A program made the position numbers and the translations under genes. 16,972 bases of DNA from the IMG/VR virus record IMGVR_UViG_2693429635_000010; one strand, written 5' to 3'. This stretch comes from a virus. Taxonomy: Duplodnaviria > Heunggongvirae > Uroviricota > Caudoviricetes. Each line of letters opens with the position of its first letter. Positions within the stretch are counted from its first letter, which is position 1. The notes beneath the pieces were generated by a model. The model was given only the letters and a program-made list of their open reading frames with translations, ran no database searches and was not told the origin of the DNA. Of this stretch, positions 1 through 16,050 are shown piece by piece.

Positions 1-815
1 CTGCCACCATGGCACTGCGCGTTAAACACGGAGAGGTCAGCACGAAACTGTGTCAGCATGGCTGTAAACAGCGCAGGTTGCTGTGCGTGGGTGGTGGCGC
101 TCATGTCAAACTCTCCCTGCATCCAGCACACCGCCAGCAACACATTTTTCGGGTTCTTCTGTAATGCAGCTTTGGTGCGCGCAATCAGGTCCTGATATAA
201 CGGTTTACCCACACCCCAGCGTGCCGAATCCTGGCTGGCCCCCGTGTCTGCACTGAATGTCCCCTCAGCGCCCTGGGTGAATGCAGAACCACCACGACAG
301 CATGGTACCAGCAGGATCCCCGCGTTATTCGGGATATACGGAAGCAGTTTTTTGGCAATATGTAAGCCCTGGCCGACACAGCCGTACTGCCCTTTGCTCA
401 GGTCTGCCTTCGGATGATTCAGCGTACTCATATCCTGCACATCATGCAGACAGTGGTCAGCCGGGATGATGTCGTTATACGTACAACTCTCTCCACCCGG
501 AGTTACCGTGCTGCGGCGCGCCAGCTGTTTAATGCGCGGATCCGGAGCATCGTAAGAATCCGGTAACGGAAGCCCTTCACCGTAGGCCATGCCGTTGGAC
601 TGTCCGGCAAGCACAACCACATAGAACCAGTCCGGCTCAGATGAAGGGCCGACCTGTGGATCTCCTTCAATAGCCACCGCCTGCATCAGTGTGTACGGCG
701 TAATGGCAACCGGTCCGCCATATGGCTGCCAGCCCTCTTTCAGTTTGTGTGTCAGCTTTTCCGCAAGGTCTGACGGCGACGCCGCCCTGACAACATCATA
801 GTGTTTAAATGCCAT
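1..815 (-). CDS. Sialate O-acetylesterase-like protein (NanS-p family: DUF1737-like N-terminus plus SGNH/SASA esterase domain); N-terminal ~271 codons only, 3' end runs off the left window edge
   Basis: Hand translation of the minus strand from ATG at 813-815 (GGGAGG 4 nt upstream) is open to position 1: MAFKHYDVVRAASPSDLAEKLTHKLKEGWQPYGG...VVLAGQSNGMAYGEGLPLPD... The GQSN block is the SASA/SGNH esterase signature. Absent from the ORF track because no stop codon lies inside the window. Confidence 0.6.
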   Translation of the reverse strand, partial: MAFKHYDVVRAASPSDLAEKLTHKLKEGWQPYGGPVAITPYTLMQAVAIEGDPQVGPSSEPDWFYVVVLAGQSNGMAYGEGLPLPDSYDAPDPRIKQLARRSTVTPGGESCTYNDIIPADHCLHDVQDMSTLNHPKADLSKGQYGCVGQGLHIAKKLLPYIPNNAGILLVPCCRGGSAFTQGAEGTFSADTGASQDSARWGVGKPLYQDLIARTKAALQKNPKNVLLAVCWMQGEFDMSATTHAQQPALFTAMLTQFRADLSVFNAQCHGG

Positions 816-1381: not shown

Positions 1382-1394
1382 ATGATGCAGATAA

Positions 1395-1471: not shown

Positions 1472-1478
1472 TATGTGA

Positions 1479-1554: not shown

Positions 1555-1603
1555 GGAAGCAGAATAATAATGGTGCGTAATTAATTCTGCAATCTCATCC
1601 GTT

Positions 1604-2533
1604 TCAAACGATTAAATCCTGAACTTCCCTGACTGTCTGCTCAAAACGTCCGGTCTCCAGCTCAACACCAATCGCACGACGCCCCAGTGCCATCGCCGCT
1701 TTTACCGTTGAACCCGACCCCATGAAAAAATCCGCAACCAGATCACCAGGACGACTACTTGCGCTGATTATCTGCTGCAGCATTTCTGCCGGTTTTTCGC
1801 ACGGATGTTTCCCGGGATAGAACTGCACCGGTTTATGTGTCCACACATCCGTGTACGGCACCTGCGCCGTCACACCAAAATACCGCCGCAGATGCTTATA
1901 TTCACTCTGCAGCTCCACATACTGCCGGTTCAGTGACGTATACGTATCCACCAGCTGGTGGTGGGGCTTTTCCAGTTCACCGCGCTGATGTTTCTCTTCT
2001 GCCACCCGGGCAAACAGCGACTGTAATTTCAGATAATCGCTTTCGTTCGGTAGCTGCCACTGACTGGCACTGAACCAGTGCGACACCATGTTTTTCTTTC
2101 CTGTGGCATCTGCAATCTGTTTTGCCGTTATCCCCAGGGCCGCGCGCGCATCACGAAAGTAAGAAATCAGCGGGGCCATCACATGCTGTTTCAGTGCACT
2201 GCCCTTCGCCGCATACCCGGCATCTTTCGGACGATACGGCCCCTGATAATGTTCCGCGAACAGAATGCGCTCTGTGACGGGGAAATACGCCCGCAGGCTT
2301 TCCTTGTTGCATCCGTTCCAGCGTCCGGACGGCTTCGCCCAGATAATATGGTTCAGCACACTGAAGCGTTCACGCATCATGATTTCGATATCAGATGCCA
2401 GGCGATGACCACAGAACAGGTAAAGACTTCCGGCAGGTTTCAGCACCCGCCAGAACTGCGCCAGACACTGGTCCAGCCACTTCAGGTAATCATCGTCGCC
2501 CTTCCACTGGTTATCCCAGCCCTCAGGCTTCAC
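1604..2533 (-). CDS. DNA methyltransferase (beta-class N6-adenine/N4-cytosine type); 5' boundary uncertain, the DPPY motif lies upstream of the first canonical start codon
   Basis: ORF-track protein ends with motif I (HPCEKP...DFFMGSGST). Extending the frame 5' by hand gives stop-LINADCLEFIRSLPENSVDLIVTDPPYFK-V(GTG at 2531-2533), so catalytic motif IV (DPPY) is in frame but has no ATG/GTG/TTG ahead of it. Confidence 0.6.
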   Translation of the reverse strand: MKPEGWDNQWKGDDDYLKWLDQCLAQFWRVLKPAGSLYLFCGHRLASDIEIMMRERFSVLNHIIWAKPSGRWNGCNKESLRAYFPVTERILFAEHYQGPYRPKDAGYAAKGSALKQHVMAPLISYFRDARAALGITAKQIADATGKKNMVSHWFSASQWQLPNESDYLKLQSLFARVAEEKHQRGELEKPHHQLVDTYTSLNRQYVELQSEYKHLRRYFGVTAQVPYTDVWTHKPVQFYPGKHPCEKPAEMLQQIISASSRPGDLVADFFMGSGSTVKAAMALGRRAIGVELETGRFEQTVREVQDLIV

Positions 2534-2790
2534 TTTAAAGTACGGCGGGTCCGTGACTATCAGGTCAACAGAATTTTCGGGTAACGACCGGATAAATTCC
2601 AGGCAGTCGGCGTTGATTAACTAACAACTGGATATTTTTACAGTATTAAGCATGGATCATTAAGCCTGTCTCTGATAGGCTCATTCTGCTTTTGCGCAAA
2701 GCAGTGGGCCTGAGGTTTGCTTGTGAACCCAACGCATGAGCAGATGGCTGGTGGGTGCCCCTAACACCTACCAGCCGCCCATTTACCACA

Positions 2791-2817
2791 AATAAAAAAG
2801 CCTTTACTGCGGAAGGC
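2791..2817 (-). terminator. Putative rho-independent terminator overlapping the stop codon of the small ORF
   Basis: Minus-strand RNA GCCUU-CCGCAGUA-AAGGC (5-bp stem, 8-nt loop containing the UAA stop) followed by UUUUUUAUU. Confidence 0.4.
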
Positions 2818-3001
2818 GTCTGTAACAACCGAACTGATAGTCTGCCAGACCCGCCATAACCAGCTGGGTCAGTATTAACTGGCAGCGTTCGCGTGAAAGG
2901 TAAGTATTCTGCGCAATCTCCCCGACTGTCGCCGGGTCGGTAACGCTTAATTCATTAAACACCACTCTGGCGGTTTCTGTCATATCCTGCTGTTTTAGCA
3001 T
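2804..3001 (-). CDS. Small hypothetical protein (65 aa), possible helix-turn-helix DNA-binding protein
   Basis: Internal ATG of track ORF 2804..3124 with AGGGA ~8 nt upstream: MLKQQDMTETARVVFNELSVTDPATVGEIAQNTYLSRERCQLILTQLVMAGLADYQFGCYRRLPQ. The track's longer N-terminal extension is hydrophobic low-complexity and overlaps the tR'-like terminator. Sits between two terminators. Confidence 0.4.
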   Translation of the reverse strand: MLKQQDMTETARVVFNELSVTDPATVGEIAQNTYLSRERCQLILTQLVMAGLADYQFGCYRRLPQ

Positions 3002-3124
3002 GTCTTTTTCCCTTTTCCGGTTAACGTGACACACCAATAACTCTTGTCGAAAAAGCCAGCAAGCTGAAAGAACGGTATTAATAACCACCAGCGAATTTAT
3101 TGCGCTGCTGTATATTACGGACAC

Positions 3125-3146
3125 AAAAAAACCACCTTCCGGTGGC
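3125..3146 (-). terminator. tR'-like rho-independent terminator ~100 nt downstream of the Q gene
   Basis: Minus-strand RNA G-CCACC-GGAA-GGUGG followed by 7 U (plus-strand A run 3125-3131). Position relative to Q mirrors the lambda pR'/tR' (6S RNA) layout. Confidence 0.55.
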
Positions 3147-3242
3147 TTCCTTGTGCGAAAAAACTTGCATTTCGCCTCGCGATACAGCTTTGCGAAGCTT
3201 ACAGGAATTCAAGCTGTTTCTGCGTAAAAAAGCAAGCTTTTT
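3147..3242 (-). promoter_or_regulatory. Putative late promoter (pR'-like) and Q-utilisation region between the Q stop codon and the tR'-like terminator
   Basis: Positional inference from lambdoid architecture only; several TTG.../TA...T hexamers are present on the minus strand but none could be fixed confidently by eye. Confidence 0.3.
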
Positions 3243-3785
3243 TTATCGAAATGAATCGTGCATAGGTACATAAAGCATGTGTTCAGCCACGGCTAACCAA
3301 CCTGCAATACGTTTCTCACATGTGCTGAAACACCATTCCGGGTGAGTACGATTTAAACATTCTGCCATTTTTCTCTTACTCATTCCCCGTCCTTCGTACC
3401 TTTGCCGGAGAATATTGATTAGCCCGGGATATTCCCCAAGCACCTCACTGATAACGCGATCAATAATCAACGCCTCTGTGTCTGTACAATGTGACAACCA
3501 GCTCTTCTGCTTCCCTCTGGTCATATCCCGAAAAAATGCCTCAAGTTCCGGTTTTTCCAGCCCGGATTTCTTCATGCTGCGTAAAACCTCATTAACTGCT
3601 GTTTTCGTCAGCTTTTTCGAAACCAGTAACCGGTTAAACATATTTCCGGATTTACCCCCACCGATATACGACCACCGCCCCCACATCCGTAATTTCCCCT
3701 GGATCCAGACTGCTTCCAGCGTGTTCAGGCGTAAATGTTCGCCGCTTTTGCCTGTAATTTCCGGATATATCATATTTACGCTCAC
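3243..3785 (-). CDS. Late-gene antitermination protein Q (phage 21/82-type Q family)
   Basis: 180-aa ORF directly downstream of rusA with overlapping stop/start (GTGA), followed by the tR'-like terminator; N-terminal LRMWGRWSY motif resembles the ERWGAW motif I recall from QuuD-type Q proteins. Confidence 0.55.
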   Translation of the reverse strand: MSVNMIYPEITGKSGEHLRLNTLEAVWIQGKLRMWGRWSYIGGGKSGNMFNRLLVSKKLTKTAVNEVLRSMKKSGLEKPELEAFFRDMTRGKQKSWLSHCTDTEALIIDRVISEVLGEYPGLINILRQRYEGRGMSKRKMAECLNRTHPEWCFSTCEKRIAGWLAVAEHMLYVPMHDSFR

Positions 3786-4141
3786 TCACTCTCAATTTTG
3801 TAAATCTTCACACCCAGCCGTCCACCAGATACTGGCTGACCACGTACAATATTGATTTCATCAAACTGCTCGTCATCAATGAGCACTCCCGCATGCGTCA
3901 GCGCATCCAGCGGTGCTTTCAGAATATTGTCCAGGTCACGACGACGCTTATCCGGTGGCTCTGCAATAATTTTTATTGCCAGCCGTCCGGACAGGCTTAA
4001 TTTCAGTCGCTGCTGGCGAACAATAAGCGCCACTGCCCGGCGATAACGCTCCCCGGCTTTTGATACAAAATATGTGCTGCCACGACGTCGCCAGTAAGTG
4101 TTCACTGTCGGCGGGTAAGGTAAAACCAAATCTATGAGCAT
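3782..4141 (-). CDS. rusA: Holliday-junction resolvase RusA
   Basis: 119-aa ORF with strong RBS (AGAGGTG, 5-nt spacer). Motifs LPYPPTVNTYWRRRG and RRRDLDN...DALTHAGVLIDDEQ match the RusA family as I recall the E. coli K-12 sequence. Confidence 0.8.
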   Translation of the reverse strand: MLIDLVLPYPPTVNTYWRRRGSTYFVSKAGERYRRAVALIVRQQRLKLSLSGRLAIKIIAEPPDKRRRDLDNILKAPLDALTHAGVLIDDEQFDEINIVRGQPVSGGRLGVKIYKIESE

Positions 4142-4153
4142 CAGTCACCTCTT

Positions 4154-5200
4154 TTACCCGAGCACGCCAGTCGCAAAGGCGTGATCAAGAAAACGAAAAA
4201 TTAACTCAATCTGAGAGCCGTACTTTTTCTCAAACTCCAGCGGGTCTGCATGAAGTTCGTTGTGGTGCTCCCGGCACAACGGTAACGTGAAAATATCGTG
4301 GGCCTTTGTCCCCATTCCCCCCTGACCATGACCAATCAGGTGATGCGGATCGTCAGCAGGCTTACCACAACACGCACACGGCTGTGTCTTCACCCAGCGC
4401 GTGTATTTCTCGTTAACCCAGCGGCGACGTTTAGGTCGTTTCATGAAAGATTCCGGAGACTCAGGATCAACGGCAATGCTGACCACCGTCTTTTCCTGTG
4501 GCGGGTTTTGCTGGTGGGCGTGAGGCAGCGGCGCAAGATTTTTTGTGCGCTGCTTCAGTATGCTGGTGGCGGTCTGCTCTCCCGGTACGATGTCGCTTTC
4601 ACGGTACATTGAGCGGATTTTTTCCGCACGCAACCCCAGCGAACGACGTAATACCGCTTCCGGTAGCGCGTCCGCCACCTGATTGCGGACCGCCCACCAG
4701 GATAATTCAGCCAGAGATAATTCCCGTTCCTGTGCACCACTTATTGCGTGACGTATGACGTCAATCATCCAGGCTGTCAGATTTTGTTGAGCAAGCTGCC
4801 CGAGTGATTCGGATGTCTGGTCGCGCAGCTGGTTGTCGCAGTGCCAGCACAACACCATTGCGCCGGTACCATAACGGTGAATGACGGTTTCACTGTGGTG
4901 ATAATCACCGTGTGGCCACTGGCAGGATTTAACATGGCGCAGTAACCAGTCAGACAATGCGCCAGCGCCACCAGCAGCACGAATCACTCGTTCGTCGCTG
5001 AAAAATGGCAGTAATGATTTATCCTCCGCCAGCGGCTGGCGAACGGCAGGAACGACCCCGGACGGCAGATTACGCATGCTTTTCGGTTCCGGCTCCACCA
5101 GTACCCGGGTATTGTGGAATACCGGCATGGATTCACGGCCCGGCTTAACGATCACCAGCCCGAGTTCCGGTACCAGAACAGGTCGAAGTAATACCCGCAC
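4154..5200 (-). CDS. DUF968-like (YdfU-like) nin-region protein with C-terminal Cys/His motif
   Basis: 348-aa ORF with GTG start and GGAGG 5 nt upstream; C-terminus carries CACCGKP...HHLIGHG...LCREHHNELH, a zinc-finger/HNH-like signature. Size and position match the DUF968 proteins of lambdoid prophages. Confidence 0.55.
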   Translation of the reverse strand: MRVLLRPVLVPELGLVIVKPGRESMPVFHNTRVLVEPEPKSMRNLPSGVVPAVRQPLAEDKSLLPFFSDERVIRAAGGAGALSDWLLRHVKSCQWPHGDYHHSETVIHRYGTGAMVLCWHCDNQLRDQTSESLGQLAQQNLTAWMIDVIRHAISGAQERELSLAELSWWAVRNQVADALPEAVLRRSLGLRAEKIRSMYRESDIVPGEQTATSILKQRTKNLAPLPHAHQQNPPQEKTVVSIAVDPESPESFMKRPKRRRWVNEKYTRWVKTQPCACCGKPADDPHHLIGHGQGGMGTKAHDIFTLPLCREHHNELHADPLEFEKKYGSQIELIFRFLDHAFATGVLG

Positions 5201-5201
5201 G

Positions 5202-5480
5202 TTACCTCCAGATGCGTTGCTGGAATGTGCGGGACGGACGCGGTGGTCGTTCGGAGTAAGGAAGCCTGACGGAGATTATCCAGTGACGATAATCGAGGCT
5301 GAGGGCTTTCTTAATCTCGTATCCGTGTCTGCGGTAGCACTGAATTAGCCACTCGGCCTGTTCTTCAGTGCATGGGGGATGCTGGAACCAGTCAGATTTG
5401 AAAGTGCGGGAACGCCGCCCGTGCCTGCTGGCAGGGGCGGCAGAGTTATCCGAATTGTAAAATTTGGTATCGTGCGCCAT
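5202..5480 (-). CDS. Hypothetical nin-region protein (92 aa), paralogue of 10055..10333
   Basis: Internal ATG of track ORF 5202..5609: MAHDTKFYNSDNSAAPASRHGRRSRTFKSDWFQHPPCTEEQAEWLIQCYRRHGYEIKKALSLDYRHWIISVRLPYSERPPRPSRTFQQRIWR. About 80% identical to the copy-B paralogue, supporting a real gene; weak RBS. Confidence 0.45.
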   Translation of the reverse strand: MAHDTKFYNSDNSAAPASRHGRRSRTFKSDWFQHPPCTEEQAEWLIQCYRRHGYEIKKALSLDYRHWIISVRLPYSERPPRPSRTFQQRIWR

Positions 5481-5549
5481 CTGTTTTCTCTGCTGGCGCA
5501 GCAGGTGCCAGTTGTTCAGGCTGACGGATGGATTGTAAACCAGAACGAC

Positions 5550-5579
5550 CAGAAAAAACAAAACCCGCCGAAGCGGGTT
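5550..5579 (-). terminator. hok mRNA 3' terminator
   Basis: Minus-strand RNA AACCCGC-UUCG-GCGGGUU followed by UUUUGUUUUUU (plus-strand A-rich run 5551-5561). Confidence 0.5.
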
Positions 5580-5647
5580 AAGTGCGGGTGCGTTGAGGAT
5601 GCCTGACACATCAGAGGTGGCGAGGGATTTCTCCCCCGCCAGGTCTC

Positions 5648-5803
5648 TTACTCCTCAGGTTCGTAAGCTGTGAAGACAGCGACCTCCGTCTGGCCGGTTC
5701 GGATTCGTACCTCGCAGAGGTCTTTCCTCGTTACCAGTGCCGTCACTATGACGGTTAAACAGATGACGATCAGGGCGATTAACATCGCCTTTTGCTGCTT
5801 CAT
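5648..5803 (-). CDS. hok: Hok-family type I toxin (51 aa, HokD-like)
   Basis: MKQQKAMLIALIVICLTVIVTALVTRKDLCEVRIRTGQTEVAVFTAYEPEE, embedded in track ORF 5648..5860; matches the Hok/Gef consensus, and I recall HokD (RelF) of E. coli as identical. Confidence 0.85.
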   Translation of the reverse strand: MKQQKAMLIALIVICLTVIVTALVTRKDLCEVRIRTGQTEVAVFTAYEPEE

Positions 5804-5993
5804 AGCCTGCTTCTCCTTGCCTTTCGGCACGTAAGAGGCTAACCTACATTTGTGAGACATAGATTGGGCCTCAGATTAATGTTAAGCGTCTTGCAGGACG
5901 CGTAATGTTAACTGGGGCTTTTCTCTATCTGCCTTTTGGTGTTCATGCCTGAGACAGATAGCCTCAAGCACCCGCAGCAATTCTACTTAACTC
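5804..5993. promoter_or_regulatory. hok mRNA leader (mok / fold-back region) with the expected antisense Sok RNA gene on the plus strand
   Basis: Established hok/sok architecture. An inverted repeat CTATCTG...CAGATAG is visible near 5925-5958. Sok promoter and ends were not mapped. Confidence 0.4.
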
Positions 5994-6049
5994 TCCTTTT
6001 CCCGCAAACCGTTTTTACCCGATATGGGAATTCCCATATCGTAATGAAT

Positions 6050-6154
6050 TCAGTTCCCTAGTCGATCCATCAAAAACACAACCAGGCAGTAAACGCCCAC
6101 AACAGCAACAACAGCCAGCGCACCTTCCATTGCCAGTGATATATCATCCGACAT
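6050..6154 (-). CDS. Small hydrophobic peptide (34 aa, single predicted TM helix), not in the ORF track
   Basis: Hand translation: GGAGGGAAT-ATG then MSDDISLAMEGALAVVAVVGVYCLVVFLMDRLGN-TGA. A diverged homologue sits at the same relative position beside the second hok locus (11159..11248). Confidence 0.35.
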   Translation of the reverse strand: MSDDISLAMEGALAVVAVVGVYCLVVFLMDRLGN

Positions 6155-6269
6155 ATTCCCTCCTTTGGTGTTAATCCCGGCGAACGTTTTTACCCCCACC
6201 GACAAATAACATATACTAAAAAAGCGATAGCCATAGCAACGCCTGTAATTGCAAATGCTTCAGGCCAGT

Positions 6270-7139
6270 TCATTGGCGCACCTCCTGCGGCGGTTCTGGT
6301 AGCGGCATCCAGTGTGACGGTTTCCACGACGCACCAGGAATTATCCACCCATCATTAGCGTCAGGATGACCCGGGATGTAAGTCGCCCATTTCATTCGCC
6401 AGTCACCTTTCCTGTCAAACTCCACGGCAACAAGAACGGCTGTTTTGGTATCCGGCATTCGCTCACTACAGCTTATCCAACTATCCGGAGTTACCGGATA
6501 GTTGCCCGATAGTGCATTCTGCTCCAGTGATGCTTTTACAAACCACGCTGCCTGAACTATAACGCCATGAATCCAGCGCAAATCAGCATCGCGATCTTTC
6601 TTTTTCATCTTTTCGCCACTTAAGGCCTTGCTTATGTGGCTGCGTACCAGGTCTTCATGTAATTCCTTCGCCTCCTCAATGGTGAAACCACCAGGCAGAA
6701 GAGCCGGAGTTACCGGAGAGCTGGTTGACGCTTCCGGGATTTTCCGAAAATTATTGGTTGACGAATCTTTATTTTCCCGAAAGTTTCCGGACTGAAGCAT
6801 GGCTTCGCGGCAATCGTTCCAGCCTGTAGCGTATGCAGCCGCTTTGCTGCTGCCTTCAACTGGCGCATCCTGCCAATACATTTCTTCCGGCACTATCGGC
6901 GCTGGAGGGGCGGCAAATAGATATCCGCCAAAGTCAGGAAGCTCTCTAATGGCCTGTACGAATTTTTGTTTGCCTACGTCAACCCCTAATGGGTAATGAG
7001 CTATAATCTTTGCCACCGGCTCTGCTTCCAGCGATGCCAGCGCAATCCGTGCCAGTTCCATTTGTTCACCACGGGTAAGCCCGTTTTCAACCGGATTTTT
7101 AATGAACAATTCAATACGTTCTTTGGTAATAGTGGTCAT
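6270..7139 (-). CDS. Hypothetical protein with DUF551-like C-terminal domain
   Basis: 289-aa ORF with RBS AAGGAG (7-nt spacer). C-terminus WISCSERMPD...GDWRMKWATY...WMPLPEPP resembles the DUF551 signature of lambdoid prophage accessory proteins. Confidence 0.5.
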   Translation of the reverse strand: MTTITKERIELFIKNPVENGLTRGEQMELARIALASLEAEPVAKIIAHYPLGVDVGKQKFVQAIRELPDFGGYLFAAPPAPIVPEEMYWQDAPVEGSSKAAAYATGWNDCREAMLQSGNFRENKDSSTNNFRKIPEASTSSPVTPALLPGGFTIEEAKELHEDLVRSHISKALSGEKMKKKDRDADLRWIHGVIVQAAWFVKASLEQNALSGNYPVTPDSWISCSERMPDTKTAVLVAVEFDRKGDWRMKWATYIPGHPDANDGWIIPGASWKPSHWMPLPEPPQEVRQ

Positions 7140-7149
7140 GTGTTACTCC

Positions 7150-7413
7150 TTAACCCGCAGTGCTTTCAACTGATGAGGGGAACAAAATCTTTTCATCAAA
7201 CCCTGCATTCATATCATGAACAGCAACACACCAATCCATCGACGAACGATTATCAAGAGCCTCCATGATTTCATCCATGCGGCGTAGGTCATACAGGTAA
7301 ATGCTTTTATCGCCAATGGTGTAAAAGCCAATTTTTTTCGGTGATGGACAGCGATCAAGAACTTCCTGTAATTCGTTTAACCATGCCCGTTCTTTTTTTG
7401 TCAAAGTTGCCAT
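7150..7413 (-). CDS. Hypothetical protein (87 aa)
   Basis: Internal ATG at 7411-7413 of track ORF 7150..7503, with AAGGA 8 nt upstream: MATLTKKERAWLNELQEVLDRCPSPKK... The track's longer start lacks an RBS and would overlap the upstream gene. Confidence 0.5.
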   Translation of the reverse strand: MATLTKKERAWLNELQEVLDRCPSPKKIGFYTIGDKSIYLYDLRRMDEIMEALDNRSSMDWCVAVHDMNAGFDEKILFPSSVESTAG

Positions 7414-7414
7414 A

Positions 7415-7633
7415 TCAGTTTTCCTTATACGGATTAATTTTATTGTGCAGTGTGTTGAACGACGCCCATACAACGTCGGTATACAATTCAGTAACTGGCT
7501 CAATTATTTTCCCGATTGCCCAGACAAAAATTAGAGGGGATATCGGTATCATCAATACGATAAACAGAATGAGAAACAAAAATTCTGTCGACCTACTTTT
7601 TTGCGGATATTCTTTTCTGAATAATGTAGTCAT
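7415..7633 (-). CDS. Hypothetical small membrane protein (72 aa)
   Basis: Track ORF with hydrophobic core FLFLILFIVLMIPISPLIFVWAIG; tightly packed between neighbouring minus-strand genes; RBS weak. Confidence 0.35.
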   Translation of the reverse strand: MTTLFRKEYPQKSRSTEFLFLILFIVLMIPISPLIFVWAIGKIIEPVTELYTDVVWASFNTLHNKINPYKEN

Positions 7634-7665
7634 TTCTTACCGCCCTTTCGGGCGGCCTCCCGACA

Positions 7666-7878
7666 TTAATCGTTGTGGTAACTCATGGCTTCATTTGCAG
7701 CATCAACCGGATCAACCTCCCACCAGCAATAATTTGGTGCGTTTCCTTCAGGTGTCCACGGTTCTAATTCATTTTTTGCCACATTCCCATCGCCAGTAAT
7801 TTTAAAAATCTGCTCAGAGAATTTTCTTGCCCACTCGTTATATTTTTCCGCATTAATGGCTTTCTGTGTATTTAACAT
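7666..7878 (-). CDS. Hypothetical protein (70 aa)
   Basis: Track ORF with RBS GGAGG 8 nt upstream of the ATG. Confidence 0.5.
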   Translation of the reverse strand: MLNTQKAINAEKYNEWARKFSEQIFKITGDGNVAKNELEPWTPEGNAPNYCWWEVDPVDAANEAMSYHND

Positions 7879-7983
7879 AAATATACCTCCAGTTAAGGAT
7901 TAAATTTTATTTACAGTGCTGAACTTAATTATTCAGATTTGGATTATGCTTTCTCTTCACGAAGTTCCGATTGTTAATTTGGC

Positions 7984-8406
7984 TCACAACAGCACCTTCT
8001 GAAAATTACCCTGATAGAAAGCCAGTACACGCTGCATAGCTTCGCTCTTCCGGCACTCGCTACAGATTATGTTCAGACGCCTGTCGTAGCGGCGTATTTC
8101 TCCGTCTGGTAATGACCAGATAAGATCCGGATCAACCACAGATGGTTTCTTCACCTTTGCCCTAGATAGTTTTTTGCGGGCATTTTGCCAGTCCTTACGA
8201 GCCTGTTCAGACGGGAATAACCCGTAACCAGAGTTGTATACATCGCCACTGGCAACCAGCTCTCTGGCGAGAACGCTCATCAGATATCTTGTCGCACCTG
8301 TCCTGGCTTCCAGTTGCCGTAACGTCTCGCGCCCACTCCGGCGTACTAGTTCAACAACCTGCCCTTTAATTTTTTCCCGCTCTTCTTGTGTAAATACTTT
8401 TGCCAT
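7984..8406 (-). CDS. Hypothetical protein (140 aa), paralogue of 15628..16050
   Basis: ATG at 8404-8406 with GGAGG 6 nt upstream (the track's TTG start at 8421 would overlap the RBS): MAKVFTQEEREKIKGQVVELVRRSGRETLRQLEARTGATRYLMSVLARELVASGDVYNSGYGLFPSEQARKDW...; ~90% identical to the right-hand copy. Confidence 0.55.
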   Translation of the reverse strand: MAKVFTQEEREKIKGQVVELVRRSGRETLRQLEARTGATRYLMSVLARELVASGDVYNSGYGLFPSEQARKDWQNARKKLSRAKVKKPSVVDPDLIWSLPDGEIRRYDRRLNIICSECRKSEAMQRVLAFYQGNFQKVLL

Positions 8407-8421
8407 AAGCGCCTCCGGCAA

Positions 8422-9192
8422 TCACTTTTCCGATACAACACGGCGGGAAGAATCAGTAATCTGTCGAACAATATCCCGGTGCTTGTTCAGCTCCCGCAGC
8501 GCGGCGCAGACTCGCTCCCACTTCTGAACATCACTTTTCGCCCTGCGCAGCGCCAGGTTTGCCCTGCGAAGGGACGGAAAAATCAGCTCATCTGCTTGCG
8601 TTTCGGTAAACGATGGCAACGGCTGCACAATGTCCGCCACAGTTTCTGTTTTAATTTCTTCCTGTGTTGCGGCTTCCCGGACTGGTAACGCAGCACCTGC
8701 TGGCTGAGGAAAGGCCTTACCATCACTTTCCGTTACCAGCGCGGCTTTCGGCTCTGCTGGTAAATTATCGCCCGGCATGCAGTAACGAAATTTACCGTTC
8801 TGATTAACGCGTGCCAGCCGCCCCGTTGCGGTTACCACCGCCAGCGTGGAAGCAACCTTGCGAGTACTGACACCGAACTTACCCGCCAGTTCCTCACACG
8901 TTTTAGCCCCATCCTGACCGATAAACTCAATCATCATGTCTGCGGTAACTTTTTGTTCGACCTCCCCGGTCAGCATATCCTGTGCTTCAGATTTTACTGG
9001 CCGCTCTTCGGTTACCCGGGATTCACCTTCGCCAGCCAGAAACCAGGTGTGACCAGTTTTATCAACGACGCCATTTCTTTTGAGTTCCCACAGCTCGTTG
9101 ACAGCCTCTTCACGACTGATTCCAAGGCTGGCCGCCACTACCTGTGAAGAGGCTCTTTTCAGTGCTTTCAGTGCGTCAAATACGGTTTCCAT
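8422..9192 (-). CDS. Hypothetical protein (256 aa) with winged-helix-like N-terminus
   Basis: ATG at 9190-9192 with GGAGG 8 nt upstream (track uses an upstream TTG at 9210). N-terminus METVFDALKALKRASSQVVAASLGISREEAVNELWELKRNGVV suggests a DNA-binding fold. Confidence 0.45.
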   Translation of the reverse strand: METVFDALKALKRASSQVVAASLGISREEAVNELWELKRNGVVDKTGHTWFLAGEGESRVTEERPVKSEAQDMLTGEVEQKVTADMMIEFIGQDGAKTCEELAGKFGVSTRKVASTLAVVTATGRLARVNQNGKFRYCMPGDNLPAEPKAALVTESDGKAFPQPAGAALPVREAATQEEIKTETVADIVQPLPSFTETQADELIFPSLRRANLALRRAKSDVQKWERVCAALRELNKHRDIVRQITDSSRRVVSEK

Positions 9193-9225
9193 TAATATTT
9201 CCTCCGACAAAATCGTTTCTCAGAT

Positions 9226-9888
9226 TCAAATAAAACCAGCTGCCTTCCGGCGTTCGTATTCCTGTTTCAGCCGTTCAATTGGCGTTGGCCCTTGCGGGTG
9301 TTTCGCCCCTTCCAGTTGTCGTCGCACTGGCGGAACACTCATCCCGTTACCAACATGCTTTGCCCATTTCGTCAGTTGCCGTTCCGCAAGTCGTTTTAAC
9401 TCACCCTGCGTCATCTGGCGCTCAATCCCTCTGGTACGCATTTCGAGGCAGATGTGGTACAGCACAGGCTGTGGCCACGGGTATTTATCACTCCCGTCGT
9501 ATCGCCAGGATTCATTGCGCCAGCGCCGGTACTCTTCCATCACTGCATCCACCGTAAGACCAAATGGATTTGCCCCACTCTCCGAAATCAGTGCAACAAA
9601 CTCAGCCAGGTCCGGGGGCCACGTTTCACCCGCCCGGCAGCGGTCCATGCACTGACGGCAGACCAGCCGGATTTGCTGTTCAGTCATCGCGCCAATCTGG
9701 GCAATCCAGAGCTTCGAAGGTGCGGCCCCGTTCTTCTGTGTCCAGCGGTTCGAATACACCTCCCCCATAAGCTCCCACAGCTTCCAGGCCGTTTCCGTTG
9801 CTGATAAATCCGTTGTCACGTTCCCACTGTTCGCGTGCTGCCCGGATTTCCTGAACTGCCCGTGATGCCGTGCCACCTGATGCTGCAT
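9226..9888 (-). CDS. Replication protein P-like (lambda P family, helicase loader)
   Basis: 220-aa ORF with RBS AAGGGGG 5 nt upstream. The blocks TEQQIRLV...TWPPDLAEFVALISE and VDAVMEEYRRW...YPWPQPVLYHICLEM...TQGELKRLAERQL...VPPVRRQL resemble lambda P as I recall it. No O-like gene lies directly upstream. Confidence 0.5.
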   Translation of the reverse strand: MQHQVARHHGQFRKSGQHANSGNVTTDLSATETAWKLWELMGEVYSNRWTQKNGAAPSKLWIAQIGAMTEQQIRLVCRQCMDRCRAGETWPPDLAEFVALISESGANPFGLTVDAVMEEYRRWRNESWRYDGSDKYPWPQPVLYHICLEMRTRGIERQMTQGELKRLAERQLTKWAKHVGNGMSVPPVRRQLEGAKHPQGPTPIERLKQEYERRKAAGFI

Positions 9889-9891
9889 GGC

Positions 9892-10053
9892 TTACCCCCT
9901 TGCTGACTGGTTAGACGGCAGATTACGCATGCTTTTCGGTTCCGGCTCCACCAGTACCCGGGTATTGTGGAATACCGGCATGGATTCACGGCCCGGCTTA
10001 ACGATCACCAGCCCGAGTTCCGGTACCAGAATAGGTCGAAGTAATACCCGCAC
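9892..10053 (-). pseudogene. Truncated 5' fragment of a DUF968-family gene (53 codons), recombination remnant
   Basis: GTG at 10051-10053 opens a frame encoding MRVLLRPILVPELGLVIVKPGRESMPVFHNTRVLVEPEPKSMRNLPS, nearly identical to the N-terminus of the 4154..5200 protein; it then diverges at the repeat boundary (9913/9914) and stops after 7 further codons, just upstream of the P-like gene. Confidence 0.5.
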
Positions 10054-10791: not shown

Positions 10792-10947
10792 TTACTCCTC
10801 AGGTTCGTAAGCTGTGAAGACAGCGACCTCCGTCTGGCCGGTTCGGATTCGTACCTCGCAGAGGTCTTTCCTCGTTACCAGTGCCGTCACTATGACGGTT
10901 AAACAGATGACGATCAGGGCGATTAACATCGCCTTTTGCTGCTTCAT
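10792..10947 (-). CDS. hok: Hok-family type I toxin (51 aa), second copy
   Basis: Encodes the same 51-aa protein as 5648..5803, embedded in track ORF 10792..11004. Confidence 0.85.
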   Translation of the reverse strand: MKQQKAMLIALIVICLTVIVTALVTRKDLCEVRIRTGQTEVAVFTAYEPEE

Positions 10948-11136
10948 AGCCTGCTTCTCCTTGCCTTTCGGCACGTAAGAGGCTAACCTAGATTTGCCGT
11001 TCATAGATTGAGCCTCAGATTAATGTTAAGCGTCTTGCAGGACGCGTAATGTTAACTGGGGCTTTTCTCTATCTGCCGTTGGTGTTCATGCCTGAGACAG
11101 ATAGCCTCAAGCACCCGCAGCCATTCTACTTAACTC
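10948..11136. promoter_or_regulatory. hok mRNA leader / expected antisense Sok region (second copy)
   Basis: Near-identical to 5804..5993. Confidence 0.4.
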
Positions 11137-11248: not shown

Positions 11249-11544
11249 CACAACCTCCTGTATTGGACGTACACCAGTCCTGATAAATATGAGGCTGTCT
11301 CGTCAGTGATTCAATACAACTATTGGGTATAGTTTCTGTGATTTTGTTCTGTAGAAATGGAACACAACAACCAGTCACCACCAGCACTTCTTTAAATACG
11401 CCAAGTCCGACGCAAGCTAACCTTCTAGGCCGCTTTGAGCGAAGAGCGGACGCTCGCATCTGTCCCAACACACTGAGGGCTTCACGAACACCTAGGTGTA
11501 CTCGTCAACTGGGAAAAAGTCAGATTATCTGCGTAAGTTTCAGC

Positions 11545-11572
11545 GTAAAAATTGGGCACTATAAAAGTGCCC
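11545..11572 (-). terminator. Rho-independent terminator 3' of the large NTPase gene
   Basis: Minus-strand RNA GGGCAC-UUUUAUA-GUGCCC (6-bp stem) followed by AAUUUUUA, starting ~25 nt after the TAG stop at 11596-11598. Confidence 0.5.
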
Positions 11573-11595
11573 AAACTGTAGAAAAATACATAATG

Positions 11596-14500
11596 CTATG
11601 TATCTGAGCCAAACATAGAGCGCCGCCTTGTTATTTTATAATAAGTGGGATTTTCATTATCCACCTCAAAATCAGAGAAGAAGTGGTTATCTCTTAATGC
11701 TGTTAATAAACTTTGATTAGTTGAATCAACTTCAATTTTAGGTTTGCCTCGCCCCAAAATTTTACTGAACTCCGATAAACCAAGCAGATCAAGATACTCT
11801 TTGCAAGTCGTCTTACTCAAATCCTTACCCGGCAACAAAGCGATTAGCAGTGCTATTTTATTCTGCATATTCAGTCCCTCTGCGACAAACAGGTTTTTTA
11901 GTAACGGTTCAGAAACATCATTAGGACTTGCTATCAATGCTGATATATCCTGTATTGCTCGACTCAAGATGAGCGACTGAGTAGAGGTTCCCCAAGTTTT
12001 ATAAGATGACGTCAAGATTAGAAGTTCATCTGGTTTAAAATTATTTTCTAAAATATAGTCATTAACGACCTGAGAGTAATTCTTACTATAAATAGCCAAC
12101 GGAGTTTTAACAAACTCGAGTAGCTTAACTTTCAAATCATCATCAACTTTCCAAGAAAGTATTGATATAGCCTCATCCAAAATAAAGTTATCAATCGTCA
12201 TTAATTCAACGTATGCCCTGATATTCTTATGAATATAATAGGAAAGTTGCTCTGAATAGTTATCTCGTATGAAATTAAGTGGCGCAACATTCATACGAAT
12301 AATATTTTTATCCACTAATATTTTGAACTTATCACTCGCGATATCACTAGCGCTAAAGGATGTTTTACAAATAATATTTAGTGAGCAAATTAATTTTTCA
12401 TATTTATCATTTGATAAATCATTACAGATAACAATCGATTTAAATAATTTACCTTTAAGCTCGTTATCAATATTAATATTTTGAAAATTCAGGTCTACAT
12501 CAGTTCTATTGATAAATTCGATAAGTGAGTCATCCAGTCCATCAACATGTTCAAAATAAGAGACAATATTTTCCTCAGAGCACACTGCTCTATCTTTATC
12601 CAACAAAGATGACCATAAAGATTCGCTCTCAACCTCACTCAGAGATGTCACGAAAGTTTGCAAAGCGTTTATATACTGGCCTTTTTGTTCATCAGATATT
12701 CCCTCATTATTAAGAACGGATAAAACAATGGATTCATCATCCACGATTGAACCATCACAACTAGATAAAACCATATCCAGATAGTCCCTAATATGGTTAT
12801 TAACATAACTAGCCAAGGGAGAATCAGGTTGTGACATCACTAGTGTATAGTTCTTATGGCGAATATCATCTTCACTATTAAGCGTGTAAACCTTACTCAG
12901 CATTAAGGTCAGGTTGGAAAAATTAATATCATAAAGTGAATGCTGGTAAACCGCATCAAAGAGTACTTTATTTGCGTTTTCAAATTTAATACTGACAAAA
13001 GAGACGTTAAGCAACTTAAAACCACTAATTAATTTGTCAACCTTTGGTTCTGATATTGCTAAATAACCTGCCGAATCAGAGATGTAATCAGTCAGACAAT
13101 CATCAATATTAATGGCCTCGATGGCGTCATTGGCAGAATAATAAAACGTGCCTATAGAGTAGAGTTTAACCCAATCAGCAGAAAATTCACTCTCTGTCAG
13201 CGCATAAGAAAAAAACTCAGGCCACTGTGTATTTAATCGATTAATGAAGACAGGCTGAGCCCTCTCAGTTTCAAAGTAACCACGAATAAACTCAACTCTT
13301 CTATCTTTTCTTAGTTGTTTGAATAAACGTTTTATTAAGTTTACCAGGGCTGGCGTTTGAAGCAGATAAGCTAATAAATCAAAATTAAGCGCCTCTTCCT
13401 GTTCAAAATCCACTTCTCGAAGGCGGGCAACGACCAGCTTGGGGTTCTTGAGTTGATAAGTGAACTCTTTGCCTTTTTGATCGGTAATGCTGCGTAAAAA
13501 CATCTTATCAATTCGACTCAGGCTATTTTCATAAAAATAGGTCATATAGTCGGTATAGGTTTCATCAATATAACCATCACGAATAAGGTATTTAAGCAAG
13601 TCAAAATACTCACTGCTTTTTATTTCATTAAAGTCTCTTTCCTCTCCAATTTCATTGGTATAGGTGAGTTTAAATATTTCATCAATGTTTTCTCTAGTTA
13701 TTACTTCTTTAAGTCTTTTGTTTCTAGAATCAACCAAACTTTCTCTTGATCTTGATATAAGCTCATTAATTTCTTCTATTTTACCATTAAATTTATTTTC
13801 AACACTTTCTTTTCTAGCCGCCCTTCTCTTTGCTATATCAGCTTTCTCAGCCTGATTATAGTGAGGATGATTATTATATCTAGATAATTCCTTATCGTAT
13901 ATAGCATCAACCTCCTGACTAGAGTTGAGTATTTCATCATTGATTGCCTCAATCTCTTTTTTTCTATCTCTAATATCTTTTTCTATTTTCTTTATTTCTT
14001 CAATAATAAGGTTGTCTTTTTCACTAAATATGGTATAAACCATACCTTGATTAAGTTGCAACTCACTAAAATCTCTTGGGAAAATATTCTTATAGGCAAT
14101 AATGGCCAACATTTTATTACAGTCAAGTTCTGTCGTGTTTAATTTGTTATAATAAATTTGAAATTCGTTATAAATATTCTTCAATATTCTCATATCATCA
14201 ATATATAAAGACATCCCTTGTAGAAATCTTTCATTGAACAACTTGAGAATACCACCACCATCAAAATGTGTGATAAACTGATCGTAAGAGTTAGAACTAT
14301 CAACAACAGGAATAACTGGAATGATATAATCAAAGAATTTGGTTCTATCCTTCGAAATGAAGATATCATCACGAAGCAAGTAAATAAAACGTAACGTCGA
14401 TTTCTTGTGCCCTGCTGTGTCCCGTTGAATATTAACCAGTCTGTTAACCTCATGAAGACGTTCAAAGATGTTATTACTATTAAAACGGTCCATGTCTTCA

Positions 14501-15228
14501 AAAACAATGGCATCAGCATCAACGTTCTCGAAAAGGTACAATACTTCATTTAAATATCTATCGAAATAAGACTCGTTACTTTCTTCAAAAATCTCTATTT
14601 CATTACCCTGTAAATTTATTTTCTTAAGAACATTACGATTCTTTTGGGTTTTTATTAACTTGTAAATGAAAATACAAGATAGGATAGTACATATAAACCC
14701 ACTAATTAAAAGCGTATCGTATTTAGTTGATAATGTAAGTAGTGTCTTTATATTACCTTCAGATAAAAGTGAAACAAACTTTTCCCACTTATTAAATAGC
14801 GTGATATGTAGTATCATAGCGATAAATAACACCGTAAAGATGGTGTTTATCACAATGTTGTTAGTTTTTATTTTTTTCTTTACTTTAAAATGTGTCTGGG
14901 GAATATCATCAGCATTAATTTGGTGAATTAACTGGTTAAGAACTTTACCTTCTAACGCGGTTTCATTTATATCTTTACTTGGTTCATTAGTTTCAGCTTC
15001 CTCAATCGATCTGAAATGAGCAAGTGAGATATGAACAAACTTTATATTTGAATGACTTTTCTTATAGGATTCGATAAGACTACTTTTTCCTGCGCTATAT
15101 TGCCCTGATATCGCAACATTTTTTAGATCGTTATTGGCAAAAACAAAATCTATCGCATTTTTATATACACCCAGCTCAACATCGCTGAACGGCGTTAACT
15201 TTTGAAATTTATAGCTATCATCACTCAT
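11596..15228 (-). CDS. Large KAP-type P-loop NTPase (1210 aa): Walker A, two hydrophobic helices, Walker B, coiled-coil region and ~700-aa C-terminal region of unknown function; candidate defence/abortive-infection protein
   Basis: Single uninterrupted 3.6-kb ORF, ATG at 15226-15228 with AAGGGA RBS. Walker A SGQYSAGKSS (aa 41-50); hydrophobic helices NIVINTIFTVLFIAMILHITLF (~aa 124-145) and LLISGFICTILSCIFIYKLI (~aa 171-192); Walker-B-like DAIVFEDMD (~aa 238-246); K/E-rich coiled-coil-like stretch ~aa 400-510. Gene body is visibly AT-rich relative to the flanks. Confidence 0.7.
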   Translation of the reverse strand: MSDDSYKFQKLTPFSDVELGVYKNAIDFVFANNDLKNVAISGQYSAGKSSLIESYKKSHSNIKFVHISLAHFRSIEEAETNEPSKDINETALEGKVLNQLIHQINADDIPQTHFKVKKKIKTNNIVINTIFTVLFIAMILHITLFNKWEKFVSLLSEGNIKTLLTLSTKYDTLLISGFICTILSCIFIYKLIKTQKNRNVLKKINLQGNEIEIFEESNESYFDRYLNEVLYLFENVDADAIVFEDMDRFNSNNIFERLHEVNRLVNIQRDTAGHKKSTLRFIYLLRDDIFISKDRTKFFDYIIPVIPVVDSSNSYDQFITHFDGGGILKLFNERFLQGMSLYIDDMRILKNIYNEFQIYYNKLNTTELDCNKMLAIIAYKNIFPRDFSELQLNQGMVYTIFSEKDNLIIEEIKKIEKDIRDRKKEIEAINDEILNSSQEVDAIYDKELSRYNNHPHYNQAEKADIAKRRAARKESVENKFNGKIEEINELISRSRESLVDSRNKRLKEVITRENIDEIFKLTYTNEIGEERDFNEIKSSEYFDLLKYLIRDGYIDETYTDYMTYFYENSLSRIDKMFLRSITDQKGKEFTYQLKNPKLVVARLREVDFEQEEALNFDLLAYLLQTPALVNLIKRLFKQLRKDRRVEFIRGYFETERAQPVFINRLNTQWPEFFSYALTESEFSADWVKLYSIGTFYYSANDAIEAINIDDCLTDYISDSAGYLAISEPKVDKLISGFKLLNVSFVSIKFENANKVLFDAVYQHSLYDINFSNLTLMLSKVYTLNSEDDIRHKNYTLVMSQPDSPLASYVNNHIRDYLDMVLSSCDGSIVDDESIVLSVLNNEGISDEQKGQYINALQTFVTSLSEVESESLWSSLLDKDRAVCSEENIVSYFEHVDGLDDSLIEFINRTDVDLNFQNINIDNELKGKLFKSIVICNDLSNDKYEKLICSLNIICKTSFSASDIASDKFKILVDKNIIRMNVAPLNFIRDNYSEQLSYYIHKNIRAYVELMTIDNFILDEAISILSWKVDDDLKVKLLEFVKTPLAIYSKNYSQVVNDYILENNFKPDELLILTSSYKTWGTSTQSLILSRAIQDISALIASPNDVSEPLLKNLFVAEGLNMQNKIALLIALLPGKDLSKTTCKEYLDLLGLSEFSKILGRGKPKIEVDSTNQSLLTALRDNHFFSDFEVDNENPTYYKITRRRSMFGSDT

Positions 15229-15309
15229 TGATATCCCTTCCCAATCTTCACCGAGAGAGCTGGCTTTCGGAGTTAATCAAACAAAATCATGCAGATAAAA
15301 TTTCGCCTT

Positions 15310-15345
15310 ATTATAGCAGACACAACTGCAAAGATTAGCTAAAGC
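15310..15345 (-). promoter_or_regulatory. Putative promoter of the NTPase gene (extended -10 type)
   Basis: Minus-strand TGcTATAAT (hexamer complementary to 15310-15315, TG complementary to 15317-15318), ~85 nt upstream of the start codon; no convincing -35, as is typical for extended -10 promoters. Confidence 0.35.
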
Positions 15346-15627
15346 CTCGTTGTTTTCTTCATCTATCCCTATAATTTTACACTACAGTTAGCACTTACTA
15401 TACCTGAAAGCTTTGCTCGTAAAGAGCACAATCGCAAGTCAGCAAAGCACGACTTTGCAATCGAGCGCCGCTAAAACAGTGCTGAATCGCTACGACTTAG
15501 GCAGCCATCTTATCGGTTGGCAGATAATTTCTAACTTCCGCTTCTGGCACAAAGCGGACAACCACGATAGCTCTATCCTGTGCCACAAAATGTCAATTCA
15601 CATCTTAACTAATGCATTTTAATCTCG

Positions 15628-16050
15628 TCACTTTAATAAATACCGAACATTCCCCTGATAAAACGACAATATGCGCTGCATAACTTCGCTTTTACGACAC
15701 TCAGTACAAATTATATTATGATGCCTGTCGTAACGACGTATTTCTCCATCAGGTAATGACCAGATAAGGTCCGGATCAACCGCAGATGGTTTCTTCAGCT
15801 TTGCCCTTGAGAGCTTTTTACGGGCATTTTGCCAGTCCTTACGCGCCTGTTCAGACGGGAATAACCCGTAACCAGAATTGTATACATCACCGCTGGCAAC
15901 CAGCTCTCTCGCGAGAACGCTCATCAGATATCTTGTCGCACCTGTCTTGACTTCCAGTTGTCGTAACGTCTCACGCCCACTCTGGCGTACGAGTTCAACA
16001 ACCTGCCCTTTAATTTTTTCTCGCTCTTCTTGTGTAAATACTTTTGCCAC
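15628..16050 (-). CDS. Hypothetical protein (140 aa), paralogue of 7984..8406
   Basis: GTG start with AGGAGG 4-5 nt upstream: MAKVFTQEEREKIKGQVVELVRQSGRETLRQLEVKTGATRYLMSVLARELVASGDVY... Confidence 0.55.
   Translation of the reverse strand: MAKVFTQEEREKIKGQVVELVRQSGRETLRQLEVKTGATRYLMSVLARELVASGDVYNSGYGLFPSEQARKDWQNARKKLSRAKLKKPSAVDPDLIWSLPDGEIRRYDRHHNIICTECRKSEVMQRILSFYQGNVRYLLK

Follow-up and report, generated by a model that had tools for sequence, protein, structure and literature searches.

A low-G+C prophage gene of Escherichia coli probably encodes a divergent, YobI-family member of the Tmn anti-phage defence family

What does a gene of conspicuously low G+C content do in a lambdoid prophage of Escherichia coli? 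The stretch of DNA that raises this question, IMG/VR virus record IMGVR_UViG_2693429635_000010 (16,972 nucleotides, hereafter the window), holds an open reading frame (ORF) of 1210 codons on its minus strand, which an earlier note, made from the letters alone, had taken for a KAP-type NTPase gene and a candidate for a novel defence gene. We find instead that its product is, with a probability of about 0.8, a YobI-family P-loop NTPase that belongs, as a divergent member, to the anti-phage defence family Tmn, and we refer to gene and protein as Tmn-like. Tmn, which consists of one gene, already has a name and a definition as a defence system (Gao et al. 2020, Science 369:1077, cited as reference 19 of PMC13001434), so the Tmn-like gene is a new member of a known system and not a new system. 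What stood of the note's defence reading is that one gene, placed in a prophage moron slot, encodes a P-loop NTPase anchored in the membrane and most probably serves defence; the novelty and the KAP type did not stand. The Tmn family and a family-level RefSeq annotation were known already; new here is a divergent, Bacillota-like clade member in an E. coli prophage.

In a Pfam scan of the Tmn-like protein, YobI-ATPase (PF20693) was the sole significant family, and KAP_NTPase (PF07693) gave no match at E<=1. RefSeq likewise names the identical protein WP_032241071.1 “YobI family P-loop NTPase”. The KAP label reflects an older usage, since earlier papers called Tmn a KAP NTPase; the recent Tmn study (PMC13001434, a 2026 preprint) places Tmn in a YobI family that is phylogenetically distinct from the KAP family of PifA. 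Two transmembrane (TM) helices between the Walker motifs are common to KAP and YobI/Tmn proteins, so this feature cannot discriminate between the families. The parts of the Tmn-like protein, with their positions in the window, are as follows (KD, Kyte-Doolittle; AF2, AlphaFold2; the 48 sequences are an alignment of the protein's own clade).

11596-15228, minus strand: coding sequence of the Tmn-like YobI-family transmembrane NTPase, 1210 aa, WP_032241071.1; ATG start, no interruption
14035-15165, minus strand: YobI-type P-loop NTPase domain, aa 22-398 (PF20693, E=8.3e-123, profile positions 1-363 of 363)
15082-15105, minus strand: Walker A GQYSAGKS, aa 42-49, with K48 (motif search; G47/K48 invariant in the 48 sequences)
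14791-14865, minus strand: predicted TM helix 1, aa ~122-146 (KD hydropathy peak 2.29; AF2 helix 122-143)
14653-14715, minus strand: predicted TM helix 2, aa ~172-192 (KD peak 2.16; AF2 helix 170-198)
14485-14511, minus strand: Walker B and Mg-site block AIVFEDMDR, aa 240-248 (D245/R248 invariant)
13429-14019, minus strand: proximal-arm equivalent, aa ~404-600, predicted coiled-coil helices 404-501 plus a small mixed domain (AF2, hhalign)
11689-13428, minus strand: distal-arm equivalent, aa ~601-1180, predicted all-alpha, solenoid-like repeat array (AF2); presumed trigger sensor

The motifs that the earlier note had read from the translation were all recovered: the Walker A with K48, two hydrophobic helices between the Walker motifs (KD segments at about aa 124-146 and 172-192, with which AF2 agrees), a Walker-B-like hhhhED block and a coiled-coil-like stretch. 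In a 19-residue window the protein has just two KD peaks of at least 1.6, at aa 122-148 and 170-193, and the pattern hhhh[DE][DE] matches it once, as AIVFED at aa 240-245. The AF2 model (aa 1-1200, from a 54-sequence alignment) has a mean predicted local distance difference test (pLDDT) of 83.4, with values >90 over most of aa 600-1130. It places P-loop strands at 37-41, 64-68, 240-244, 280-285 and 301-304 and inserts a long helical hairpin (122-153, 159-198) between the second strand and the Walker B strand, so that both TM helices fall between strands 64-68 and 240-244. K/R-rich stretches border the hairpin (HFKVKKKIK before, KTQKNRNVLKK after), a charge distribution that fits a predicted N-in/C-in topology, in which the two NTPase halves would lie on the cytoplasmic side. 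Four long helices at aa 404-501 make the modelled coiled coil, and the small mixed region beside it bears an invariant block (Y541, G552, E556, Y558 and D560 of the Tmn-like protein). The model counts 39 helices within aa 596-1180; the published Tmn repeat scheme sums to 38, a loose comparison only. Foldseek against the PDB returned weak matches only: AAA+ cores such as Cdc6/ORC (TM-score 0.46 on the target), Avs3 (8dgc_B, E=2e-3) and the ARM/HEAT solenoids of beta-catenin, importin-13, CAND1 and BRAT1. A sequence search of the PDB gave no match and no solved relative.

How close, then, is this protein to Tmn itself? The signature of Tmn is a YobI-family NTPase with two TM helices inserted in the P-loop domain; the protein assembles into a decamer in the membrane, its proximal arm is a coiled coil and its distal arm an ARM/HEAT-like solenoid, and inclusion in the family was set at E<1e-10 with the PADLOC Tmn hidden Markov model (HMM) and >=50% of the profile covered (PMC13001434). 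With that HMM the Tmn-like protein scored 227 bits (E=7e-68) in two stretches, aa 9-439 on profile positions 27-474 and aa 458-649 on 538-735, the second reaching E=7e-14 by itself. Eight of 8 diverse members of its clade matched the model in the same two-stretch manner. As classical references we used two plasmid proteins, L002 (1273 aa, “anti-phage transmembrane ATPase”, WP_235412070.1, F plasmid) and L003 (1264 aa), which match the model end to end at 2057 and 2225 bits. By BLASTP the Tmn-like protein shares 25% identity with L002 over aa 4-648 (E=3e-55), and a separate match to L003 covers aa 476-645 (E=4e-6).

The earlier note had recognised no motif in the last ~700 aa. A search of 1.84 billion cluster representatives with nothing but the C-terminal 810 aa gave 2163 matches at E<=1e-3, 588 of them at E<=1e-30; most are proteins of ~1200 aa aligned end to end at 30-46% identity. 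The region is thus a conserved module, which as a query of its own retrieves these 2163 cluster representatives. Among full-length homologues, an N-terminal Walker A is present in 102/102, followed in nearly all by two hydrophobic segments.

We then compared profiles with hhalign, using the 48-sequence alignment and an alignment of the two classical Tmn proteins. At full length the two aligned with a probability of 100% (E=4e-70) in a single colinear stretch, 4-1197 against 21-1251. Such a score might come from the N-terminus, and the profiles were therefore also cut into regions, with these results:

NTPase region, 1-400 against Tmn 1-430: E=2e-58
Middle region, 400-650 against Tmn 430-725: E=9e-13
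Distal region, 650-1210 against Tmn 725-1273: E=2.3e-10, colinear 767-1184 with 857-1244
Controls, reversed or column-shuffled templates: E=0.05-0.7 (distal region ~0.2-0.4)

All three regions match Tmn above the controls, so the homology extends over the whole protein, and the Tmn-like protein almost certainly belongs to the Tmn/YobI protein family. The note's “novel” gene thereby falls to a named system, by the PADLOC match and by the full-length profile homology. Its guess that the large C-terminal region could be a sensor fared better: by homology to Tmn the likely sensor is the distal-arm equivalent.

Mutagenesis of Tmn-25, the protein of E. coli ECOR25, has identified as essential G66/K67, Y262, D276/R279, N297, K325/F326 and R374 in the NTPase and F506 and Y541/R544 in the proximal arm, Y541 within a double mutant (PMC13001434). 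L002 has the exact residue at 15/15 positions mutated in Tmn-25, so its numbering serves as Tmn-25 numbering. Residues were transferred to the Tmn-like protein through the profile alignment, and conservation was scored over the 48 sequences. All nine essential NTPase residues (9/9) are conserved here and invariant in the 48 sequences:

G66/K67 of Tmn-25: G47/K48 here, invariant in 48/48
Y262: Y231 here, invariant
D276/R279: D245/R248 here, invariant
N297: N266 here, invariant
K325/F326: K297/F298 here, invariant
R374: R347 here, invariant
R544 (proximal arm): R472 here, conserved in 45/48
L867 (specificity residue): L777 here, conserved

Several observations weigh against calling this protein a Tmn. 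Overall identity to classical Tmn is ~21%. Two essential proximal-arm positions have changed: Y541 of Tmn-25 corresponds to R469 here, a position that is not conserved and where the family majority is Y, and F506 has no counterpart, lying inside a 37-aa insertion absent from the clade. The summed PADLOC coverage of 646/1273 positions (50.7%; 35% for the best stretch alone) sits right at the 50% cut-off of the Tmn paper, and the PADLOC Tmn model does not see the last ~560 aa; on the isolated C-terminus it gives no match. This silence could be misread as “no homology”; the hhalign comparison with its controls shows homology there. PHROGs and NCBIfam scans of the protein returned nothing useful, and DNA and protein searches of deposited phage genomes gave no match to the gene. 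In the literature we found no experiment on this protein or its clade, and the decamer, Mg2+ export and plasmolysis come from one preprint, one homologue and an 11.6 Å map (PMC13001434). The coverage figures also hold a lesson for annotation: PADLOC-type models see the N-terminal half only, and a clade that sits at the coverage threshold may be under-counted.

Set beside the known systems, the Tmn-like protein most resembles Tmn of clades Ia and Ib (Tmn-25 and the F-plasmid protein WP_235412070.1). Both are single genes for ~1200-1270 aa with a YobI-type P-loop and two TM helices between Walker A and Walker B, both continue, the Tmn-like protein by prediction, with a coiled-coil proximal arm and then an alpha-solenoid distal arm in the same order, and both travel on mobile elements with no conserved partner genes. 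They differ in that the arms can be aligned by profiles only, and the Tmn-like protein lacks the 37-aa proximal-arm insertion and has a 33-aa insertion in the distal arm. Here the gene is prophage-borne and chromosomal, whereas classical Tmn lies on the F plasmid beside Gabija and vapBC; relatives of the Tmn-like protein are mainly from Bacillota, those of classical Tmn from Enterobacteriaceae only. In the L003 locus (171-8324) the classical F-plasmid gene, annotated “pcar”, has vapBC pairs to either side and adjoins a UvrD-helicase and AAA-ATPase pair resembling Gabija, in agreement with the published co-localisation of Tmn and Gabija. The Bacillota YobI-like proteins (Clostridia, Bacilli) are full-length relatives with the same length, Walker A and two-TM layout at 40-56% identity. 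YobI of Bacillus subtilis is the namesake of PF20693, whose whole profile the Tmn-like protein matches; we liken it through that Pfam family and the Bacillota relatives and not through its own sequence, and unlike it the gene described here belongs to a cassette of an enterobacterial prophage and has a promoter of the E. coli type. To our knowledge, B. subtilis YobI is uncharacterised. Avs/STAND proteins similarly couple a repeat-domain sensor to an NTPase switch in one large polypeptide. The Tmn-like protein differs from them in having no separate effector domain and no STAND or NACHT profile match, in being membrane-embedded by prediction, and in that the NTPase itself is the proposed effector.

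KAP NTPases, which include PifA of the F plasmid, are likewise membrane-associated signalling P-loop NTPases tied to phage exclusion, and like the Tmn-like protein they often bear helical repeat regions. We therefore considered a PifA-like abortive infection, in which sensing of a phage would lead to membrane damage (depolarisation, nucleotide leakage) and cell death. The TM helices inside the P-loop domain, the KAP label of Tmn in earlier papers, the central channel of ~25 Å in the published Tmn decamer (PMC13001434) and the weak fold similarity to other defence NTPases such as Avs3 would all suit it. It nevertheless appears unlikely, given the family assignment described above (KAP_NTPase absent at E<=1 versus 8e-123 for YobI-ATPase), the separation of YobI from KAP in the Tmn paper, and the finding that Tmn causes no depolarisation, propidium iodide (PI) uptake or ATP leakage, unlike PifA, which acts through depolarisation and leakage (PMC13001434). 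The same finding speaks against the PifA-like membrane damage to which the earlier note's comparison pointed.

For a Tmn-type protein, a sequence of events can be borrowed from the experimentally studied homologue Tmn-25, whose trigger is RIIB of phage T2 and in which triggering leads to ATP hydrolysis and Mg2+ export and hence to plasmolysis (PMC13001434). By this analogy, the lysogen would make the Tmn-like protein from the cassette's own promoter, and the protein would sit in the inner membrane as an oligomer. Its fast-evolving distal arm would bind a protein of the infecting phage; binding would turn on ATP hydrolysis, driving ion (Mg2+) export and ATP depletion; and the cytoplasm would collapse by plasmolysis, halting phage development. 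We put the chance that the Mg2+ and plasmolysis scheme applies unchanged to the Tmn-like protein at about even. Since the arms share profile-level similarity only, the trigger and the phage range are expected to differ from those of Tmn-25.

Tmn is one of few membrane-integrated sensor-effector defences with a proposed mechanism, and functional work has so far dealt with plasmid-type proteins of enterobacteria and a single distant clade (the proteins in the published tests came from clades Ia, Ib and VIII; PMC13001434). With the Tmn-like protein, the large Bacillota-type YobI branch, in which >2000 cluster representatives share the C-terminal module, has a representative that is native to E. 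coli and carried by a prophage. Such a representative lets the divergence of the arms and trigger specificity, and the generality of Mg2+ export and plasmolysis, be addressed in E. coli.

Is the gene in working order, or is it a foreign acquisition in decay? The earlier note had pointed to its AT-richness and to signals of its own, and these proved to be real. The G+C content of the ORF is 0.328 (32.8%; 0.30 at third codon positions), against 0.503 in the 11.6 kb on its left and 0.490 on its right. Its expression signals are the following:

15310-15318, minus strand: extended -10 TGcTATAAT of a putative promoter with a weak -35, read from the sequence and kept across contexts
15235-15242, minus strand: Shine-Dalgarno-like GGGAAGGG, 6 nt ahead of the ATG, kept in the five-context comparison
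11552-11574, minus strand: predicted intrinsic terminator, 9-bp stem plus T-run, 22 nt past the stop
15319-15536, minus strand: conserved non-coding leader of the cassette, 5' of the putative promoter, ~220 nt, mean column identity 92% (five contexts)

Across five independent genomic contexts the TGnTATAAT element, its spacing to the ATG and the ribosome-binding site are invariant. A scan for promoters with two hexamers did not list the 15310-15318 element; such a scan misses it because its -35 is poor. The terminator folds at -9.7 kcal/mol (z = -6.5 against shuffles). The leader is as well conserved across the five contexts as the coding region, encodes on the gene strand only short TTG- or GTG-start ORFs of at most 32 aa, and may be a regulatory region or a small RNA. 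It also holds short palindromes, for example GCAAAG...CTTTGC.

In codon alignments with the Klebsiella and Enterobacter copies, the ratio of nonsynonymous to synonymous substitution rates (dN/dS) is 0.18-0.26 overall, 0.12-0.16 in the NTPase and highest, 0.24-0.50, in the distal arm. This contrast is the pattern expected of a conserved engine joined to what would be a faster-evolving sensor. These values bear directly on the possibility that the gene is inactive or decaying cargo, an acquired AT-rich gene silenced or non-functional in E. coli. Its 33% G+C would make it a typical target of xenogeneic silencing, it is rare (32/5426 complete genomes), and broken copies exist: in E. coli NN5 (NZ_CP126348.1) the gene is split by ISKpn26-family and IS903B insertions (IS5 family), and in Serratia oryzae (L013 6001-9622) the reading frame is interrupted near codon 119. 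Yet 31 genomes hold the 1210-codon ORF intact, with 99-100% conservation, purifying selection is evident across genera, the catalytic residues are all intact, and promoter and ribosome-binding site are conserved, so that decay is highly improbable. Taken as a whole, the Tmn-like gene forms a one-gene unit that is kept under purifying selection and brings along a conserved putative promoter and a terminator of its own.

The surroundings of the gene raise the further question of whom it serves. Its home is a Qin-like lambdoid prophage integrated beside rspB/ynfA, with the order replication genes, DUF977, Tmn-like gene, hokD/sok, DUF968, RusA, Q-like, tRNAs, lysis genes and terminase. The position between replication genes and a hok module, as the earlier note had it, is borne out by the two neighbours:

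15628-16050: DUF977 replication-region gene
10792-11116, minus strand: hokD/sok (hokD-type ORF 10792-11004, sok 10942-11116)

Of 5426 complete E. coli genomes, 32 have the identical cassette, in every case on the chromosome, and 10 viral contigs of IMG/VR hold the identical gene. The interval between DUF977 and hokD is a hotspot for cargo, which answers the note's suggestion to check related prophages for unrelated cargo: between the same flanks, other prophages carry a NACHT protein, a KwaB-like protein, a Ser/Thr kinase with a PP2C phosphatase, FRG, SMEK with a methyltransferase, HAD with NUDIX, DUF4209 or QueH, and Qin of K-12 carries relBE-ydfV-flxA. The slot cargos at L008 (2152-4131), L009 (1768-4027) and L105-L109 include two uncharacterised genes of 333 and 320 aa, and several of the cargos at these loci are unannotated genes that are candidates for a defence role.

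One alternative is that this YobI-family NTPase serves its carrier element, in competition between elements, in stabilisation of or addiction to the prophage, or in control of the lytic cycle at the membrane. The gene is always found on mobile DNA (prophage, integrase island, beside IS110), a hok/sok addiction module adjoins it, classical Tmn genes lie in plasmid leading regions among vapBC modules, and conflict between mobile genetic elements is noted in the Tmn literature. Set against this, homologues directly protect against many phages, the same slot holds defence-type cargo in other prophages, and the gene has its own promoter and terminator and is not tied to the phage lytic operon. We consider a carrier role quite improbable, and we regard the Tmn-like gene as a probable anti-phage defence gene. 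The gene has no conserved neighbour: among 67 family loci, the largest cluster of flanking ORFs occurs in 4, which marks it as a single-gene system, and the cassette travels by itself from one genomic context to another.

Where did the gene come from? Copies in Klebsiella, Enterobacter and Serratia are 88-97% identical and lie in contexts without lambdoid backbone genes; the Klebsiella copy is in an integrase/AlpA/AAA_25/methylase/HNH island adjoining an IS110-family transposase. Beyond Enterobacterales, the nearest genomes show <=56% identity and are almost all Bacillota, leaving a gap from 88%. Family-wide, over 67 loci that include Bacillota hosts (L012-L087), median G+C is 0.30 for the gene versus 0.38 for the flanks. 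The low G+C together with the gap in identity suggests that the gene may have been acquired from a low-G+C Bacillota lineage and then spread among Enterobacterales.

How, finally, could such a cargo be exchanged? Homology to a sister prophage with another cargo ends at 11442 and restarts at 15537, and nearly the same ends (~15560 to ~11445) delimit the cassette in the Klebsiella island (L005), Enterobacter (L012) and Serratia (L013), at 94-97% identity; the exception is Enterobacter quasihormaechei (L014), where the shared DNA begins at 15489. The cassette and its borders are:

11445-15560, minus strand: mobile cargo cassette, ~4.1 kb (border motif, leader, promoter, coding sequence, terminator, border motif)
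15537-15558, minus strand: upstream border hairpin TCCGCTTCTGGCACAAAGCGGA, 7-bp stem, 70 nt past the DUF977 stop
11429-11450, no strand assigned: downstream border motif GCCGCTTTGAGCGAAGAGCGGA (plus-strand reading), related to the upstream hairpin

As single-stranded DNA the upstream hairpin folds at -6.7 kcal/mol (z = -4.2). It keeps the same offset of 70-71 nt from the DUF977 stop in prophages with four different cargos, and in most sampled hits, from ~2190 E. coli genomes, the homology of the backbone sets in at its edge or no more than a few bases away. The downstream motif lies in an inverted repeat with the upstream border (I2: 11415-11450 with 15537-15572, 36 nt, 72% complementarity), cassette ends in other genomes fall inside it, and it recurs at +482..503 from hokD, the same offset, in an FRG-cargo prophage. 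On the gene-sense strand its hairpin was no better than shuffles, so we name it a related motif and inverted repeat and not a proven hairpin; a strict palindrome pattern found the upstream border hairpin alone.

The 22-nt motif TCCGCT-N8-10-AGCGGA marks both ends of the cassette and, in ~40% of E. coli genomes, the borders of DUF977-hokD modules, with extra copies between the modules of the K-12-type slot. Tandem copies lie at the cassette junctions of Enterobacter (L012 5628-5691) and Serratia (L013 9772-9832), and further occurrences at L008 (4232-4253), L105, L107 and L109. Crossovers between genomic contexts fall inside the motif, and the border motifs look like sites of cargo exchange, via short homology or a dedicated enzyme. 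A more far-reaching variant would give the Bacillota-like Tmn clade another phage trigger and possibly another ion, and the cassettes a dedicated, undescribed mechanism of exchange, site-specific or hairpin-directed, in place of short-homology recombination; as a whole we find it rather doubtful. Hotspot and border hairpins together bear on how lambdoid prophages swap defence cargo. IS110-family elements are known to target palindromic repeats, and in the Klebsiella loci (L005-L007 11813-13051) an IS110-family transposase gene lies 29 nt past a truncated downstream border motif.

Elsewhere the window is itself a hybrid of two lambdoid early regions. Strain CD45 lacks a 4.4-kb segment (5530-9912; junctions around 5529/5550 and 9912/9913) and is 99-100% identical over the rest, and the segment matches a different prophage at 94%; it is this segment that gives the window second copies of hokD/sok, of DUF977 and of the 5' part of DUF968. 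None of the complete E. coli genomes in the collection has the whole hybrid arrangement, and the window is either a real recombinant prophage or an assembly chimera. The two hok/sok modules are visible as Rfam sok matches at 5798-5973 and 10942-11116 (minus strand; 120 and 107 bits) with hokD-type ORFs beside them at 5648-5860 and 10792-11004. Positions 1038-1228 and 1305-1554 (both minus strand) hold a match to the small RNA STnc100 (138 bits) next to tRNA genes of the prophage, a cluster made up of Arg-tct, Arg-tcg and a tRNA with a CAT anticodon, which ARAGORN calls Met and RefSeq calls Ile.

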